Origin: a virus | Lineage: Duplodnaviria > Heunggongvirae > Uroviricota > Caudoviricetes | DNA length: 33,615 bases | Strand: one strand, 5' to 3' | IMG/VR virus record: IMGVR_UViG_2563366821_000007 | Shown here: piece by piece, positions 12,941-22,727 of the stretch | How the letters are laid out: each line of letters begins with the position of its first letter | How positions within the stretch are numbered: position 1 is the first letter of the stretch | Notes under the pieces: model-generated | The model's input: only the letters and a program-made list of their open reading frames with translations | Database searches by the model: none | Told to the model about the DNA's origin: nothing | Made by a program: the position numbers and the translations under genes

Positions 12941-13755
12941 GTATGGAGTTGATGGTTAAAGCGATGAAAATTCGAGTGGGAAATCCATTGCGAAAACTGG
13001 TTCTGATTAAGCTGGCTGATAATGCCAGCGATCAGGGTGAGTGCTGGCCCAGCTACCAGCATATTGCTGACCAGTGCGAGATTAGCAAACGTTCTGTGAT
13101 GAATCATATTGCGGCCCTTTGTGAGTCCGGGCTGGTAAAAAAAGTCACCCGGAAAGGTGAAAAAGGTAACTCAAGTAATATCTATCTCCTTCATCTTGAT
13201 GGTGCAGGAGATTCACTAGGGGGTAGTGCAAATAATTCACTATCTGGTGCAGCAAATTCACCAGGTAGTGCAGGAGTTGCACCAGGGGGTAGTGCAGGAG
13301 ATTCACCCAGAACCAGTCACTCTTTTGAACCAGTCAAAGAACCAGTCAATGAACCAATAGCTGTTGGTGCATCTGCTGATGAGTCTGTGCGAGTTCGTTC
13401 AAACCGACCGGAATACTCTCCGGAGTTTGAGCAGGCATGGCTGGCCTATCCAAAACGTGCTGGTGGCAATTCAAAATCTGCAGCCTTCAAAGCCTGGAAA
13501 GCCCGTTTGAATGAGGGGGTAAACCCCGAAACCATGCTGGAAGGTGTGAAACGCTACGCGGGCTGGGTATCTGCGATGGGTAACAGCGGCACACAATTTG
13601 TGAAACAGGCTGTCACGTTCTTTGGCCCGGATCGTCATTTCGAAGAATCCTGGGAAGTTCCTGCGGTATCTGCAGTCAGACGCGAGGACCCGTACTTCAA
13701 AGCCAGTTACGACAACGTGGACTACAGCCAGATCCCGGAAGGATTCAGGGGGTGA
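12937..13755 (+). CDS. Replication initiation protein (lambda O-like, N-terminal HTH)
   Basis: 272 aa; N-terminal LVLIKLADNASDQGECWPSYQHIADQCEISKRSVMNHIAAL resembles phage replication-initiator HTH domains; a Gly/Ser/Ala-rich linker coincides with iteron-like DNA repeats, as in lambda O. Confidence 0.6.
   Translation: MSMELMVKAMKIRVGNPLRKLVLIKLADNASDQGECWPSYQHIADQCEISKRSVMNHIAALCESGLVKKVTRKGEKGNSSNIYLLHLDGAGDSLGGSANNSLSGAANSPGSAGVAPGGSAGDSPRTSHSFEPVKEPVNEPIAVGASADESVRVRSNRPEYSPEFEQAWLAYPKRAGGNSKSAAFKAWKARLNEGVNPETMLEGVKRYAGWVSAMGNSGTQFVKQAVTFFGPDRHFEESWEVPAVSAVRREDPYFKASYDNVDYSQIPEGFRG
13198..13360. repeat. Iteron-like direct repeats (candidate replication origin) inside the O-like gene
   Basis: Five imperfect ~19-bp repeats of consensus GGT(AGT)GCAGGAGATTCAC at 13201, 13221, 13246, 13264 and 13288, followed by GAACCAGTCAA x2 (13327-13350). 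Confidence 0.5.
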
Positions 13756-13757
13756 TC

Positions 13758-14246
13758 ATGAGTCTTTTGAATGAAGTTCAGAAATTCATTGAAGCCCATC
13801 CGGGCTGTACTTCCGGAGACATTGCGGATGCTTTTGCTGGTTACTCACGGCAGCGCGTTCTGCAGTCAGCAAGCAAGTTACGTCAGAGTGGGCGTGTGGC
13901 TCACCGTTGTGAAGGAGATACACGCAGACATTTCCCACGCCTGACTGAGAGAGCGCAGGATCCGGAACCACAACCAGTTCGTGAAACCAGACCTGTGCGC
14001 AATTTCTATGTCGGCACTAACGATCCCCGTGTGATTTTGTGCCTGACCCGCCAGGCTGAAGAACTGGAGTCCAGGGGCTTATACCGTCGTGCTGCAACGG
14101 TGTGGATGGCGGCATTCCGTGAAAGCCACTCCCAGCCAGAACGAAACAATTTTCTGGCACGTCGTGAGCGGTGCTTACGGAAAAGCAGCAAGCGCGCTGC
14201 ATCGGGTGAAGAGTGGTATCTGTCAGGGAATTTCGTGGGGGCTTAA
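13758..14246 (+). CDS. PerC/Pch-like transcriptional regulator (putative)
   Basis: Start placed at ATG 13758 (MSLLNEV...) 6 nt after GGGGG; C-terminal GLYRRAATVWMAAFRESH...RRERC resembles the PerC-family core motif (GLWRRAA.RW...RRR.C); N-terminal 80 aa unassigned. Confidence 0.4.
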   Translation: MSLLNEVQKFIEAHPGCTSGDIADAFAGYSRQRVLQSASKLRQSGRVAHRCEGDTRRHFPRLTERAQDPEPQPVRETRPVRNFYVGTNDPRVILCLTRQAEELESRGLYRRAATVWMAAFRESHSQPERNNFLARRERCLRKSSKRAASGEEWYLSGNFVGA

Positions 14247-17589: not shown

Positions 17590-17606
17590 TTTTGTGGAGA
17601 AAGTTG

Positions 17607-17978
17607 ATGCGTGATATTCAAATGGTTCTTGAACGTTGGGGGGCATGGGTGGCAAATAATCACGAGGATGTGGAATGGTCATCTGTTGCTGCAGGTTTTA
17701 AGGGATTAATTCCTTCGAAAGTAAAATCCCGCCCGCAATGTAGCGATGACGATGGCCTGATCATTAGCTCTGCGATGACAGTTCTTAAGAAAAAGGAACC
17801 GTATCAATACGAATTACTGGAAATGTATTATGTGTATGGGGTTACATTACGGGTGTTGGGGGTAAAACTGGGGATATCACTTAATCAGGTTGTTATCAGA
17901 CTGCAGAAAGCTGAAGGGTTTATTGACGGTTGTCTGGCAATGTTGGGGGTATCTTTAGAAATTGATTGTTACATATAG
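17607..17978 (+). CDS. Q: Late-gene antiterminator Q
   Basis: Start at ATG 17607 after GGAGA; MRDIQMVLERWGAWVANNHEDVEWSSVAAGFKGLIPSKVKSRPQC matches the Q antitermination family; last regulatory gene before the lysis region. Confidence 0.7.
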   Translation: MRDIQMVLERWGAWVANNHEDVEWSSVAAGFKGLIPSKVKSRPQCSDDDGLIISSAMTVLKKKEPYQYELLEMYYVYGVTLRVLGVKLGISLNQVVIRLQKAEGFIDGCLAMLGVSLEIDCYI

Positions 17979-18053
17979 TAATAAATTCAATCAAAGTAAA
18001 TAATCATATTTTATTATAACCTCCTGATGATACCTGTTCATTGGGAGGTTATT

Positions 18054-18671
18054 ATGGATAAAAATGTAGAGCATGTATTAGTTGATGCAATTGAAAATAA
18101 GCAATCTTTAACAGTCGTTTACTTAGGAGGGAGCCAGCCCGGAACATTAAGGAATATTTCTCCGATTAGTATAAATGGGGATAAATTGCGGGCAAGATGC
18201 CATAGTTCTGGAGCAGTAAAGGTTTTCAATCTTGGGAAAATACAGTTACCCAGTGACTCCTGCGCGGTATCTATGCACTATGGAGATTTAGAAGTTAAAG
18301 CTTATGAGACGATGCAGAGCGTAAATGACAACTTTCATGCCCTTTATCCTGAAGGACGATGGGGTGTTGATTTTAATGAGCATCGCTTTGCTTTATTTGA
18401 TTTTTTTAAAAACGGGAAACGAAAAAAAACGGCATTTATGGCAATTGAGTTCAGGGAAAGAGATGAAGAGAAAATAATAACAGGTGTAACAATTGATATT
18501 GGTATATCTGGAACAGTGATTTCTGAGAAGTCCCGAATCCCAAAAAGACGACCATGGGTAGTGGTTGGTCCCGAACACGGAGAATACAGTACTTATTCAA
18601 CTTTGGACAAGGCTGCTACAGCGTTTTTTGAGAGGCTTTCGTTGATAGCATCCGGCCTGGAAGATAATTGA
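18054..18671 (+). CDS. AT-rich cargo gene of unknown function (possible WYL-like beta-barrel pattern)
   Basis: 206 aa; ATG 18054 six nt after GGAGG; clearly lower GC than flanks; first gene after Q. Segment LTVVYLGG...LRNISPISINGDKLRARCHSSGAVKVFNLGKIQ loosely follows the WYL-domain pattern; very tentative. Confidence 0.55.
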   Translation: MDKNVEHVLVDAIENKQSLTVVYLGGSQPGTLRNISPISINGDKLRARCHSSGAVKVFNLGKIQLPSDSCAVSMHYGDLEVKAYETMQSVNDNFHALYPEGRWGVDFNEHRFALFDFFKNGKRKKTAFMAIEFRERDEEKIITGVTIDIGISGTVISEKSRIPKRRPWVVVGPEHGEYSTYSTLDKAATAFFERLSLIASGLEDN

Positions 18672-18800
18672 TTTTATGTTTGGTATTCAGAGTTCGCCGT
18701 GCTTAAGAAAGTCAAGATTCTAAAAATACTGAATGAGCTACTTGTGTTATAACAAAAATGCTATTAGTGTGTTAAGAGTGGTTACTTCGCCACACAACTT

Positions 18801-18825
18801 AAACCCGCCACTGAGCGGGTTTTTT
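18801..18825 (+). terminator. Rho-independent terminator
   Basis: AAACCCGC-CACT-GAGCGGGTTT hairpin followed by TTTTTG, about 130 bp after the cargo gene stop. Confidence 0.6.
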
Positions 18826-18949
18826 GTACCTGTAAACTTGGTGCAGTACAGTAAACACGCTGGTGGTCGTGAATACTGGCTTTTTATCTTGCTGGCTTTT
18901 TAGACAAGAGTTATTGGTATGTCACGTTAACCGGAAAGGGTAAAAAGAC

Positions 18950-19147
18950 ATGCTGAAACAGCAGGATATGACAGAAACCGCCAGAGTTGTGTTTGATGAA
19001 TTAAGCGTTACCGAACCGGCGACAGTCGGGGAGATTGCGCAGAATACTTACCTTTCACGCGAACGCTGCCAGTTAATACTGACCCAGCTTGTTATGGCGG
19101 GTCTGGCAGACTATCAGTGCGGTTGTTACAGACGCCTTCAGTCCTGA
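18950..19147 (+). CDS. Hypothetical small protein (65 aa)
   Basis: ORF-track entry; ends within a terminator hairpin; ATVGEIAQNTYLSRERCQLILTQL could be a small winged-helix; unverified. Confidence 0.4.
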   Translation: MLKQQDMTETARVVFDELSVTEPATVGEIAQNTYLSRERCQLILTQLVMAGLADYQCGCYRRLQS

Positions 19148-19160
19148 AGGCTTTTTATTT
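19134..19160 (+). terminator. Rho-independent terminator
   Basis: GCCTTCA-GTCC-TGAAGGC hairpin followed by TTTTTATTT. Confidence 0.5.
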
Positions 19161-19281
19161 GTGGTGAATGGGCGGCTGGTGGGGGGGCGACACCTGTCAG
19201 TCCTTTGCTTATGTGTTGATGATAATTTACCTTTTGGGGCTATAATTGAGCTAACCAATTGCTAATGAAAGTAAAATTATA

Positions 19282-19995
19282 ATGGCTGTTGTCTGTTCAG
19301 TTATCATGGTTTGCTCCCCAATTAATATTTTTCTTGAAAAGGATACGTTGTCACTTAAGCCAGGCTCAGTTGTTCTGGCCACCAAATGCATCAGGGAGCT
19401 TTTCCTTATGCATTATGGCAAAGTTAAAATTGTCGATATAAGCGAATCCGTCGTAAGTCAATATCTGGAAAGTCAGCATAAGCTGACGAGGACTCGTCTG
19501 ACTGACATTCCGCTTTACCTGTTGCTGGAACCCAACAATCCTGCGTTGGCTGCGGCTTTAATTACCAGCCAGGGATTTTCCGGAGAGGCCACGGATATGT
19601 TTCTTATGATGGCCTGCCTGTCTCTGTTTGAAACAGATGAACGGATGTCATTGTTTTTAAGTGGATGTTTATCCAGCATAAGTGCCAAAGTCAGGGCGAT
19701 AATTCAGACAGATATATCAGCAAGCTGGACGCTTGGTGCGATTGCTCTACAGTTGCATATGAGTGAGAGTTTGTTAAAGACAAAACTGAAAAATGAAGGG
19801 GGCATGTTCAGTCGCTTGTTGCTGGAAGAGCGGATGCGTGTTGCTGTAAATATGTTATGTTCCCGGCATGGATATGGACAGGCTATAGCAGAAAAATGCG
19901 GTTATTCAAGCAGGTCCTACTTTATTTCTGTATTTCACCGCTATTATGGCTTCCCGCCAGACAGATATGTATCCAGGCAAGGGCTTGATTATTGA
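19282..19995 (+). CDS. AraC-family transcriptional regulator
   Basis: 237 aa; C-terminal dual HTH_AraC signature (WTLGAIALQLHMSESLLKTKLK... and GYGQAIAEKCGYSSRSYFISVFHRYYGFPP); AT-rich relative to phage backbone. Confidence 0.75.
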   Translation: MAVVCSVIMVCSPINIFLEKDTLSLKPGSVVLATKCIRELFLMHYGKVKIVDISESVVSQYLESQHKLTRTRLTDIPLYLLLEPNNPALAAALITSQGFSGEATDMFLMMACLSLFETDERMSLFLSGCLSSISAKVRAIIQTDISASWTLGAIALQLHMSESLLKTKLKNEGGMFSRLLLEERMRVAVNMLCSRHGYGQAIAEKCGYSSRSYFISVFHRYYGFPPDRYVSRQGLDY

Positions 19996-20023
19996 TTTTC
20001 ATCTGATTATTATTTTTTGGCTC

Positions 20024-20099
20024 GGCCCTTTAGCTCAGTGGTGAGAGCGAGCGATTCATAATCGCCAGGTCGCTGGTTCAAATCCAGCAAGGGCCACCA
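20024..20099 (+). tRNA. tRNA with CAT anticodon (Met or lysidine-modified Ile2-type)
   Basis: Cloverleaf read by eye: 7-bp acceptor stem GGCCCTT/AAGGGCC, anticodon stem GCGAT/ATCGC with loop TCATAAT (anticodon CAT), T-loop GGTTCAAATCC, 3' CCA encoded. Confidence 0.8.
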
Positions 20100-20106
20100 T
20101 CACATA

Positions 20107-20183
20107 CCGCCATTAGCTCATCAGGATAGAGCGCCAGCCTTCGAAGCTGGTTGCGCGGGGTTCGAGTCCTCGATGGCGGTCCA
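20107..20183 (+). tRNA. tRNA-Arg (anticodon TCG as read)
   Basis: Acceptor CCGCCAT/ATGGCGG, U8, D-stem GCTC/GAGC, anticodon stem CCAGC/GCTGG with loop CTTCGAA (anticodon TCG), T-loop TTCGAGT, CCA encoded; C1:G72 base pair is unusual and the anticodon should be confirmed computationally. Confidence 0.7.
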
Positions 20184-20196
20184 TTATCTGTACCCT

Positions 20197-20273
20197 GCGT
20201 TATTAGCTCAGCCGGACAGAGCAATTGCCTTCTAAGCAATCGGTCACTGGTTCGAATCCAGTACAACGCGCCA
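20197..20273 (+). tRNA. tRNA-Arg (anticodon TCT)
   Basis: Acceptor GCGTTAT/ACAACGC (one mismatch), anticodon stem ATTGC/GCAAT with loop CTTCTAA (anticodon TCT), T-arm ACTGG-TTCGAAT-CCAGT, CCA encoded. Confidence 0.8.
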
Positions 20274-20289
20274 GACTTATTTTTCCCGG

Positions 20290-20318
20290 CTCGCTTTTGC
20301 GGGCTTTTTTTTAAATGT
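20290..20318 (+). terminator. Rho-independent terminator after the tRNA cluster
   Basis: GCTCGC-TTTT-GCGGGC hairpin (one G-U pair) followed by T8. Confidence 0.6.
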
Positions 20319-20765
20319 CTCACAATTCAGACGGTTGACAGTTGTCTGTTTTGCGGGGAGTTTGTTAAAAGAAACTGGCATGGTGAATCCCCCTGTGCGG
20401 AGGGGCAATCAGCAACTGGTGTTTTGTCACCGACCCTTATCCTTTCTGTGCGGGTTCAGGTGCTGATACTGAACTCACCGGGAGGCACCCGGCATCATGT
20501 GCATGATGATACAGATACGCGGCTTTAGCCCCTCTCCGGAGGGGCTTTCTTGTGGGCAAAAAAAAGCCCGAGTGGGTTCGGGCAACAGCATGAGATATAC
20601 ATTTTTATAATCGAATGGATTTTAACCAGAATTCATAAGGCTGCGCAACTGCGCGGTCTTTTTCGAATTGCGGGCTGTCGTCTCTCTTCTGCCATTGTCC
20701 TGTAACTTCCGGACTTCAGCCCGCTCCTTATTTTACTCACAATATTATCCCGGCCGGGAGGATTC

Positions 20766-22727
20766 ATGGCATTTAAACACTATGACGTGGTCAGGGCGGC
20801 ATCGCCGTCAGACCTTGCGAAACGACTGACACAAAAACTGAAGGAGGGGTGGCAGCCATTTGGCAGTCCGGTGGCCATCACGCCTTATACCCTGATGCAG
20901 GCCATTGCGGCGGAAGGTGATGTCACCACACCTGTGGTGGTGAAGCCGTCGGATGGAGAAGGCGCAGTTATCAGCACTACCAGCAACCCGGAGTATTACT
21001 TTGTTGTTGCCCTGGCCGGGCAGTCAAACGGTATGGCGTATGGTGAAGGGCTTCCGCTGCCGGAGACATATGACCGTCCGGACCCGCGTATTAAACAGCT
21101 GGCGCGTCGCAGCACTGTCACGCCGGGTGGTGCGTCCTGTAACTACAATGACATTATTCCTGCGGACCACTGCCTGCATGATGTTCAGGATTTGAGTAAG
21201 TTTTCACACCCGAAAGCCAGCGCAGCTCAGTATGGATGCGTGGGGCAGGGATTACATATCGCGAAGAAATTGTTGCCGTTTATTCCGGCGAATGCCGGTA
21301 TTCTTCTGGTTCCGTGCTGCCGTGGTGGTTCTGCATTTTTGGCGGGCGATGAAGGTACCTTCAGCGAATCCACCGGCGCAAGCGAGACCTCGGCACGCTG
21401 GGGTGTAGATAAGCCACTGTACAAGGACCTGCTTACCCGTACTCAGGCCGCACTGAAGGCCAACCCTAAAAATATTCTGCTTGCAGTGGTCTGGATGCAG
21501 GGCGAGTTTGATTTGAAACAGGGTGCATACGCCACTCAGCCGGGGCTGTTTGATTCCATGGTGGAAAAATATCGTTCTGACCTGTCGGAATTCGGAGGTC
21601 AGTGTCTCGGGGGCTCTCCGTCATCAGTTCCCTGGATTTGTGGCGACACGACCTACTACTGGAAGCAGACTTATTCTTCGCAATACGATGCGGTGTATGG
21701 TGCATATAAGACGAAATCCGCAAAAAAAATTTTCTTTGTGCCGTTTATGACGGATGAAAACGGGCGAAATGTGGGTACCAACGAGCCGTCAGAAGATCCG
21801 GATGTTGCGGATATTGGGTATTACGGAGCCGGTGGTCGAACGGACGCCAAAACCTGGACGACGGCTGACCGTAAAACGCATTTTGGATCATGGGCACGTC
21901 GTGGGATTATTTCCGACCGTCTGGCAACGGCGATTCTTGTGCATGCCGGGAGAACCGCTGAATTCATTACCGGAAAACAGCCTGATACGGTGAAGCCCAC
22001 CGGACCTTCCGGTGAAGGTACGGAGAGAGAGCCGGAAGGTCCGGTCAGTAACCGAACCCTGATGAGTCTGCTGGCGTCCGGCGAAGACCTGGCATCACAG
22101 GGCTGGCGCTATTATCACAAACCGGCGAGCGGAGACAATGTTAACAAAAACATTGCTGAAGCGGTGGTCAGTGATGCGGGGGCTACGGGAGGTAAGGCCC
22201 TGCAACTGAATAAACCGGAAAACCACATCTGGTTTCTGGAGCATGATGCAGCCGGGCAGGGGGCAGAGTTGCTGAAGAAAGGAGGACGTGTGAGCGTACG
22301 GTTTAAGTTGCCGGGTTCACTGGTGCCGAATCAGTTTGCCCTGGGCATTTACTGGCAGTTGTCGTCCCTGCCGGAGGGAGTGACGCTGGCAGAGGAAGGC
22401 AACGACATGCTGATGTCCTTCTTCCTGCAGACGGATGCGACGAACCTGAACGCGATGCACCACAAGAAGCCGAATGCGAAGCTGGATACGTTCGGGGTCT
22501 TTGATAACGGATGGCACACACTGGCTTTTGAGTTTGCCGGAAACAACAGCATTCAGGTGACGCCGGTACTGGATGAGAAACGGGGGACGCCGTTCACACT
22601 GGTGAAATCTCCGGCATCAGGGGCGGCGGACAAACTGCAACTGACAGGCATATCAAAGGCGGCGACATATACGCTGCTGATTGACAGTGTGAAGGTGGAA
22701 GTGAACAACGCGGATGCCGCGGCATGA
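20766..22727 (+). CDS. Prophage sialate O-acetylesterase (NanS-p-like; N-terminal DUF1737 plus SGNH hydrolase)
   Basis: 653 aa; N-terminus MAFKHYDVVRAASPSDLAKRL typical of DUF1737; SGNH block I (VALAGQSNG) follows; GGGAGG Shine-Dalgarno; located downstream of the tRNAs as in Stx-type lambdoid phages. Confidence 0.75.
   Translation: MAFKHYDVVRAASPSDLAKRLTQKLKEGWQPFGSPVAITPYTLMQAIAAEGDVTTPVVVKPSDGEGAVISTTSNPEYYFVVALAGQSNGMAYGEGLPLPETYDRPDPRIKQLARRSTVTPGGASCNYNDIIPADHCLHDVQDLSKFSHPKASAAQYGCVGQGLHIAKKLLPFIPANAGILLVPCCRGGSAFLAGDEGTFSESTGASETSARWGVDKPLYKDLLTRTQAALKANPKNILLAVVWMQGEFDLKQGAYATQPGLFDSMVEKYRSDLSEFGGQCLGGSPSSVPWICGDTTYYWKQTYSSQYDAVYGAYKTKSAKKIFFVPFMTDENGRNVGTNEPSEDPDVADIGYYGAGGRTDAKTWTTADRKTHFGSWARRGIISDRLATAILVHAGRTAEFITGKQPDTVKPTGPSGEGTEREPEGPVSNRTLMSLLASGEDLASQGWRYYHKPASGDNVNKNIAEAVVSDAGATGGKALQLNKPENHIWFLEHDAAGQGAELLKKGGRVSVRFKLPGSLVPNQFALGIYWQLSSLPEGVTLAEEGNDMLMSFFLQTDATNLNAMHHKKPNAKLDTFGVFDNGWHTLAFEFAGNNSIQVTPVLDEKRGTPFTLVKSPASGAADKLQLTGISKAATYTLLIDSVKVEVNNADAAA

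Follow-up and report, generated by a model that had tools for sequence, protein, structure and literature searches.

The closest described relative of the locus reported here is psrB of Escherichia coli O157:H7, the name given to Z2104 in two reviews (PMC10877973; PMC8565820). According to one of them, PsrB binds the hdeA promoter, between positions -132 and -45, and the gadE promoter, and raises acid resistance (PMC10877973). PsrB and PsrA, which are 90% identical according to the reviews, are also described as repressors of type III secretion that act via GadE and YhiF (PMC10877973; PMC8565820), a statement echoed elsewhere (PMC10057817). Type III secretion in EDL933 changed little when psrB was deleted, and PsrB was active only in trans (PMC10877973, PMC8565820). 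The reviews place psrA (z1789) in O-island 50 / CP-933N, and psr genes are reported to co-occur with Pch regulators on EHEC prophages (PMC10877973). PatE, another prophage-encoded activator of acid resistance, targets the same hdeA promoter region as PsrB (PMC10877973), and the regulators YdeO, GadW, GadX and AppY act on gadE and the AR2 acid-resistance system (PMC10057817).

A psr locus in a lambdoid prophage

The window, meaning the whole stretch of 33,615 nucleotides that was analysed (IMG/VR record IMGVR_UViG_2563366821_000007), carries the gene set of a lambdoid prophage, with an integrase, a CI-like repressor, Q, a lysis region and terminase-like ORFs. The whole window was found in no complete genome of the collection, where the best match covered 89% at 97.7% identity; the complete genomes closest to it were human isolates, the S88 lineage among them. 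An earlier, sequence-only reading had described positions 18950-19995 as regulatory cargo between Q and the tRNA genes, made up of two ORFs. Both ORFs were found in the ORF list as described, on the plus strand at 18950..19147 (65 aa) and 19282..19995 (237 aa), and their position was also as stated, with the Q gene upstream at 17592..17978 and the tRNAs downstream at 20024..20273, followed by a gene for a SASA-family esterase. The Q product was recognized as an antiterminator by PF06530 (160.8 bits) and matched the Q21 structures 6jnx and 6p18 with E = 5e-10. The two ORFs had also been said to be low in GC; this holds for the 237-aa gene (0.438) and fails for the 65-aa ORF, which at 0.505 is level with the window mean of 0.504.

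Another gene, which was absent from the earlier description, also lies between Q and the 65-aa ORF. It occupies 18027..18671, has a GC content of 0.395 and encodes a 214-aa WYL-like protein with a weak WYL match that falls in phrog_8498, where no function is assigned. Its position looks like a second variable cargo slot. In an O157 prophage its place is taken by a CPBP protease gene, and at the same position in O104:H4 and the Stx2a phage WGPS2 there are two reverse-strand genes, one of which encodes a nucleoid-associated protein. A PADLOC search gave only sub-threshold matches for the 65-aa and WYL-like proteins and had no model for the 237-aa protein.

The 237-aa gene is an allele of psrB

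The assignment of the 237-aa protein to the AraC family was borne out by its C-terminal double helix-turn-helix, which was recognized by HTH_AraC (PF00165) at 50.3 bits (cut-off 26.6) and by HTH_18 (PF12833) at 39.8 bits (cut-off 33.6). The DNA-binding domain matched the GadX structure 3mkl with E = 7e-19. Within the AraC/XylS family the protein belongs to the YdeO/GadW/AppY/PatE subgroup. Its best full-length profile was that of YdeO, followed by GadX, and both were far under their equivalog cut-offs: the YdeO equivalog (NF007407) gave 108.5 bits over residues 1-229 against a cut-off of 348, and the GadX equivalog (NF007432) gave 87 bits over the C-terminal half only, against a cut-off of 500. 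Cluster names for the protein were generic labels only, and an Rfam search returned nothing significant inside 18950-19995.

The sequence-only reading had placed the gene with prophage-borne AraC regulators that rewire acid-resistance or virulence regulons, and comparison with characterised prophage AraC regulators showed that it is an allele of one of them. To identify Z2104 in a sequenced O157 locus (L004), we relied on locus-specific primers published for O-island 57 of EDL933 (PMC4763077), which cover the region Z2100-Z2109. The primers for Z2100, Z2101, Z2102 and Z2104 hit the locus mismatch-free and with one constant offset, and this colinear mapping identifies the AraC gene at L004 9001-9714 as Z2104. 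The window protein was 98.7% identical to its product over 237 aa, with the differences A103V, H196Y and I202V. The Z2104 primer pair also matched the window exactly, and the predicted amplicon of 158 bp (19542-19699) was of the published size. The psr locus in the window is thus an ordinary one, and the 237-aa gene is already known as psrB.

The gene is both common and conserved. A DNA search found psrB in 830 of 5426 complete E. coli genomes, with an identity of at least 99% in 595 of them, including O157:H7, O145, O111 and O104:H4 strains, and the identical protein sequence was present on at least 1000 contigs. Comparison with other psr alleles gave pN/pS values of 0.24-0.43, which indicates purifying selection. 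The psrB of E. coli S88 (L001 4783-5490) carries a 6-bp in-frame deletion that removes Tyr-Gly from ...SRHGYGQ... and is otherwise the same as in the window.

Comparison with PsrA, PatE and the K-12 regulators

EDL933 PsrB (Z2104, O-island 57 / CP-933O region) and the window protein are both 237 aa long with the AraC double helix-turn-helix, and the Z2104 locus has the same flanks as the window, with a small, probably helix-turn-helix-encoding ORF upstream and Ile/Arg tRNAs and the SASA esterase downstream. The prophage backbone differs, as the window has a Q21-family Q and the WYL-like gene, whereas the O157 Z2104 locus has a DUF1133 Q-like gene. A second paralogue in O157:H7 was 90.7% identical to the window protein (22 substitutions) and 91% identical to Z2104. 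It lies at the same place upstream of tRNAs, in a lambdoid prophage that also has a PerC-family gene. This paralogue is probably PsrA, since 91% identity to Z2104 fits the reported identity between PsrA and PsrB. No AraC gene was annotated between Q and the esterase when CP-933N was inspected in ATCC 43894 (L005, 1625001-1675000). The 91%-identical paralogue was seen in another prophage, at 1.18 Mb in the O157 strain 27_141091 (L006). The mismatch in the location of psrA could reflect a difference in prophage assembly or recombination.

The window protein was 37% identical to the product of Z0321 / Sakai ECs_0287, which falls short of the high identity that would mark it as an orthologue of PatE; ECs_0287 was taken to be PatE from its position in Sp1. 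Both proteins belong to the same subgroup and share an M-x-x-x-C-S-V-I N-terminus and the AraC DNA-binding domain. The PatE gene lies at the end of the degraded prophage Sp1, whereas the psrB of the window lies between Q and tRNAs. Among the K-12 relatives, full-length identity to the window protein was 35% for GadW, 31% for YdeO and 29% for AppY, and GadX reached 41% over the DNA-binding domain only. YdeO, GadW, GadX and AppY, which are chromosomal or in DLP12, have the same domain plan as the window protein.

psr is a cassette in a defined slot of the late operon

The window was aligned with two O157 prophages, the Stx2k phage phiSTEC1575-Stx2k, SfV, mEp460 and the Stx2a phage WGPS2. The seven loci share a conserved block that runs from the terminator at 18801 through the small gene and its terminator to an invariant 17-mer and ends near 19225. 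Past this point the loci split into a psr class (the window, the two O157 prophages and the Stx2k phage) and a DNA methyltransferase class (SfV, mEp460 and WGPS2). Homology between the two classes returns about 15 bp before the first tRNA. Judged from these two breaks, psr is a discrete cassette that can be exchanged in a fixed slot and spans some 780 bp (roughly 19225-20005), and the backbone includes the small gene. A small ORF followed by psr, the Ile/Arg tRNAs and the SASA esterase was found at Z2104, in the second O157 prophage and in O104:H4, which has the gene order of the psr class and was left out of the seven-locus alignment. In phiSTEC1575-Stx2k (L002 4262-6943) the psr allele was 91.6% identical to the window protein, and the order was small ORF, psr, three tRNAs and directly next stx2kAB. 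Since stx2kAB directly follows the tRNAs there, psr must be co-transcribed with the toxin genes upon induction.

The sigma-70-like site ATGATA-16-TATAAT at 19219..19246 on the plus strand, 36 bp before the ATG of psrB and with 10 of 12 matches, was the top-scoring promoter-like site on that strand in a scan of 17900-20800. The scan found 7 such sites, compared to 5.0 expected from shuffled sequences, and the site is a match to the consensus only. Its -10 hexamer, which falls within psr-specific DNA at the left end of the cassette, was identical in all four aligned psr loci, and the site is predicted to act as a promoter of psrB. Another promoter-like site on the plus strand, TTGATT-17-TATTAT at 19985..20013, overlaps the psrB stop codon just 5' of the first tRNA, and of this site only the TTATTA part was common to a methyltransferase-carrying phage. 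No convincing terminator was found between psrB and the tRNAs (z +0.43).

The 65-aa gene belongs to the phage backbone

The 65-aa gene (18950..19147, plus strand) comes first after the late terminator and belongs to the SfV orf47 / phrog_331 family. The match to the phrog_331 profile covered residues 1-64 with E = 6e-37, and no function is assigned to phrog_331. Homologues were found in 55 phage records, with identities as low as 48%, and in 295 protein clusters from Escherichia, Shigella, Salmonella, Klebsiella, Citrobacter and Buttiauxella. The pN/pS values were 0.12-0.2 in four of five related loci and 0.44 when compared to the nearly identical O104:H4 copy; pS relative to SfV was 0.41. The values of 0.12-0.2 mark the ORF as a real gene.

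The product is probably a small helix-turn-helix protein. An AlphaFold2 model (pLDDT 80.7) has four helices, and the top Foldseek matches, with TM scores of 0.5-0.65 and E of about 1, include the winged-helix domains of MarR, PcaR, Z-alpha and PefI, none of them a significant match; the same list, at E of about 1, also holds proteins without a winged helix-turn-helix, among them methyltransferases and complexes of WhiB with sigma region 4. TrmB (PF01978), the PGAP label of this ORF, gave 17.8 bits (E = 0.003), under the gathering score of 25.6, and other winged-helix Pfam models also matched under threshold only. A profile search of the PDB returned nothing below E = 0.1, and a search of NCBIfam gave no match.

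The idea that the 65-aa ORF is cargo or a partner of the regulator found no support. The GC content equals the window mean, and the gene is kept in lambdoid phages of several genera that lack psr, including SfV, mEp460, phiP27, the cdtI phage and many Stx2 phages. In one O157 strain it is frameshifted beside an intact psr paralogue. On these grounds the gene is a part of the lambdoid phage backbone rather than cargo, and it is a separate unit that opens the late operon of many lambdoid phages. The comparison with SfV illustrates this arrangement: orf47 of SfV is 92% identical to the 65-aa protein and has the same place directly after the late terminator downstream of Q, and is followed by a DNA methyltransferase and then the lysis genes, without psr and without tRNAs.

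Probable late promoter, terminators and Chi sites

As the earlier reading had proposed, the 65-aa ORF is flanked by intrinsic terminators, with hairpins at 18801-18822 and 19134-19151, each with z -3.1. The upstream one is a tR'-like terminator on the plus strand (18801..18828) with an ACCCGCC/GGCGGGU stem followed by T6 and a folding energy of -12.0 kcal/mol. It was kept in 7 of 7 aligned loci, where it forms the start of the conserved block, and the equivalent site is annotated as a rho-independent terminator in the SfV record. The downstream one (19134..19160, plus strand, -10.5 kcal/mol) has a GCCUUCAG/CUGAAGGC stem followed by U5, overlaps the stop codon of the 65-aa gene and was conserved in the aligned loci. 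In both mEp460 (L011) and the Stx2k phage (L002), an ORF of about 420 bp has been inserted between two copies of the late terminator AACCCGCC..GAGCGGGTTTTTT, which in mEp460 lie at about 1672-1700 and about 2380-2410. The late terminator is suggested to be a recurrent insertion point for extra genes.

The late promoter and leader (pR'/qut) for the Q21-family antiterminator are probably located at 18730..18800 on the plus strand, a segment that was not flagged by the promoter scan. Tentative hexamers are TTGTGT (18742-18747) and TAGTGT (18765-18770) with a spacing of 17 nt. This placement follows from two observations. The segment just 5' of the terminator is common to four loci with a Q21-family Q despite different genes inserted after Q, their Q proteins being 44-92% identical to each other, and in WGPS2 and O104:H4 a promoter would not fit next to Q, since the reverse-strand genes border on it or overlap it. 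The placement for the window is based on these four Q21-family loci only. The WYL-like gene would then have been inserted between Q and pR'. A more general rule, that the segment upstream of the terminator tracks the Q type in all phages, proved too simple when SfV and mEp460 were considered. In the group with a 250-aa Q, the promoter-terminator unit lies directly 3' of Q.

A Chi site, GCTGGTGG, lies 5' of the 65-aa ORF at 18859..18866 on the plus strand. A hairpin at 18859-18880 was considered as a further terminator and rejected, since it was no better than shuffled sequences (z -0.99) and the Chi site is the better explanation. The invariant 17-mer AATGGGCGGCTGGTGGG (19167..19183, plus strand) includes another Chi site at 19175-19182. 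It was identical in 8 loci, whichever gene comes next, and was intact in mEp460 though the adjoining small protein is only about 50% identical; it is more conserved than the adjacent coding sequence. The 33.6-kb window contains 19 copies of Chi, 13 of them on the plus strand, compared to 1.5 expected and a maximum of 5 in shuffled sequences. An abundance of Chi in lambdoid phages has already been described (PMC12315714, PMC3784561).

The tRNA cluster, small RNAs and the PerC-domain gene

The tRNA cluster downstream of psrB (20024..20273, plus strand) is a homologue of ileZ-argN-argO and was called by ARAGORN as Met(CAT), Arg(TCG) and Arg(TCT). The first tRNA (20024-20099) is one base off ileZ (tRNA-Ile2) of phage WGPS2 and O157 prophages, with a T for a C two bases 5' of the CAT anticodon. 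Annotators are inconsistent in naming this tRNA. The cluster is followed by a strong intrinsic terminator on the plus strand (20288..20312; -11.5 kcal/mol, z -2.7, then T8). Between the last tRNA and the esterase gene there were two Rfam matches, a full-length STnc100 sRNA at 20349-20557 on the plus strand (131.7 bits, gathering score 47) and the prophage anti-sRNA AsxR at 20561-20613 on the minus strand, where the 63 bits equal the gathering score and AgvB gave 43 bits. The EvrS sRNA of EDL933 has been mapped between z1789 and the esterase gene z1793 (PMC11774850) and may correspond to the sRNA region of the window at 20349-20613.

A PerC-domain gene of 164 aa lies in the early region at 13752..14246, between a replication-like gene and Dam. 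The PerC domain is C-terminal (36.1 bits, cut-off 22.6) and the protein falls in phrog_1324, labelled 'transcriptional activator'. Its identity to a 104-aa PerC-family protein of O157 was 41% over 44 residues only, and compared with the EHEC Pch proteins it is longer, with a likeness at the domain level only. The earlier reading had proposed that this gene may act together with the AraC regulator, and such cooperation is a speculative possibility.

A model for psrB and its alternatives

We consider it likely that the window gene, as an allele of psrB, acts as a prophage regulator of acid resistance as first described in O157:H7. From the gene identity, domains, synteny, cassette limits and terminators observed here, we infer how the promoter would be used, how psrB would be expressed in the lysogen and that it would have the same targets in the host. 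In the lysogen, psrB would be transcribed from its own promoter-like site within the cassette of about 780 bp, and the two upstream intrinsic terminators would shield it from the late promoter pR'. Upon prophage induction, Q-modified RNA polymerase would read through the small gene, psrB and the tRNAs. The C-terminal double helix-turn-helix of PsrB would bind AT-rich promoter DNA and activate gadE and hdeA of the host, so that the lysogen would gain acid tolerance, in line with reports on the O157 allele. In LEE-positive hosts, type III secretion would in addition be repressed indirectly through GadE and YhiF. The closest complete genomes may lack the LEE, in which case only the acid-resistance arm of the model would apply.

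The alternative to which we give most room, while still judging it unlikely, is that psrB is an intact passenger without a phenotype, either silenced, for instance by H-NS on AT-rich DNA, or redundant with GadX, GadW and YdeO. Such a state would agree with the low GC of the gene (0.438), with promoter evidence that consists of a consensus match only, with the three related AraC regulators that the host already directs at gadE (PMC10057817), and with the small effect of a psrB deletion on type III secretion in EDL933 according to the reviews. Against it stand the purifying selection across psr alleles, the presence of the gene in 830 complete genomes, the occurrence of the exact protein sequence on at least 1000 contigs and the acid-resistance phenotype reported for PsrB (PMC10877973). 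It is far less probable that PsrB mainly controls functions of the phage, such as the late genes, the neighbouring tRNAs or the sRNAs further downstream, instead of host genes. The gene does abut the tRNA cluster without a terminator in between, and it is rich in AUA, AGA, AGG and CGA codons, with 4.6 per 100 compared to 0.6-2.4 in the other large genes counted (DUF968, SASA, large-terminase-like, capsid-like and Dam). However, PsrB is reported to target the hdeA and gadE promoters of the host directly (PMC10877973), and sister phages with the same tRNAs have an unrelated methyltransferase in the slot, which argues that the phage does not need psr.

An equally slight chance is given to the proposal that the 65-aa protein, a probable helix-turn-helix protein, and the AraC regulator form one cooperating cargo module. 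All psr loci examined have the two genes side by side on one strand, but the small gene is found without psr in the phages named above, shares its GC content with the backbone and is frameshifted next to an intact psr paralogue. Moreover, a terminator separates the two genes, and the psr cassette is marked off by a break in homology near 19225, past the end of the small gene. The 65-aa protein could instead be an uncharacterised regulator that serves as a checkpoint for transcription into the cargo slot, where psr or a methyltransferase is followed by the tRNAs and then by stx2 in Stx2k, Stx2a and Stx2e phages. This role is suggested by the position of the gene as the first past the late terminator, with a terminator of its own and the invariant Chi-bearing 17-mer next to it, and we regard it as improbable. 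The preferred reading remains that of psrB as a host-directed acid-resistance regulator, carried in a cassette that is separate from the small gene.

The role of psrB in acid resistance and in the control of type III secretion has already been described in EHEC, and the locus carries little weight as a discovery. A single slot in the late operon of lambdoid phages takes either the psr cassette or a DNA methyltransferase, and the psrB allele family is widespread beyond O157, in O104:H4, in the S88-like ExPEC lineage and in an Stx2k phage. If the checkpoint role of the 65-aa protein were true, the expression of Shiga toxin and of morons would be under a second regulator in addition to Q.
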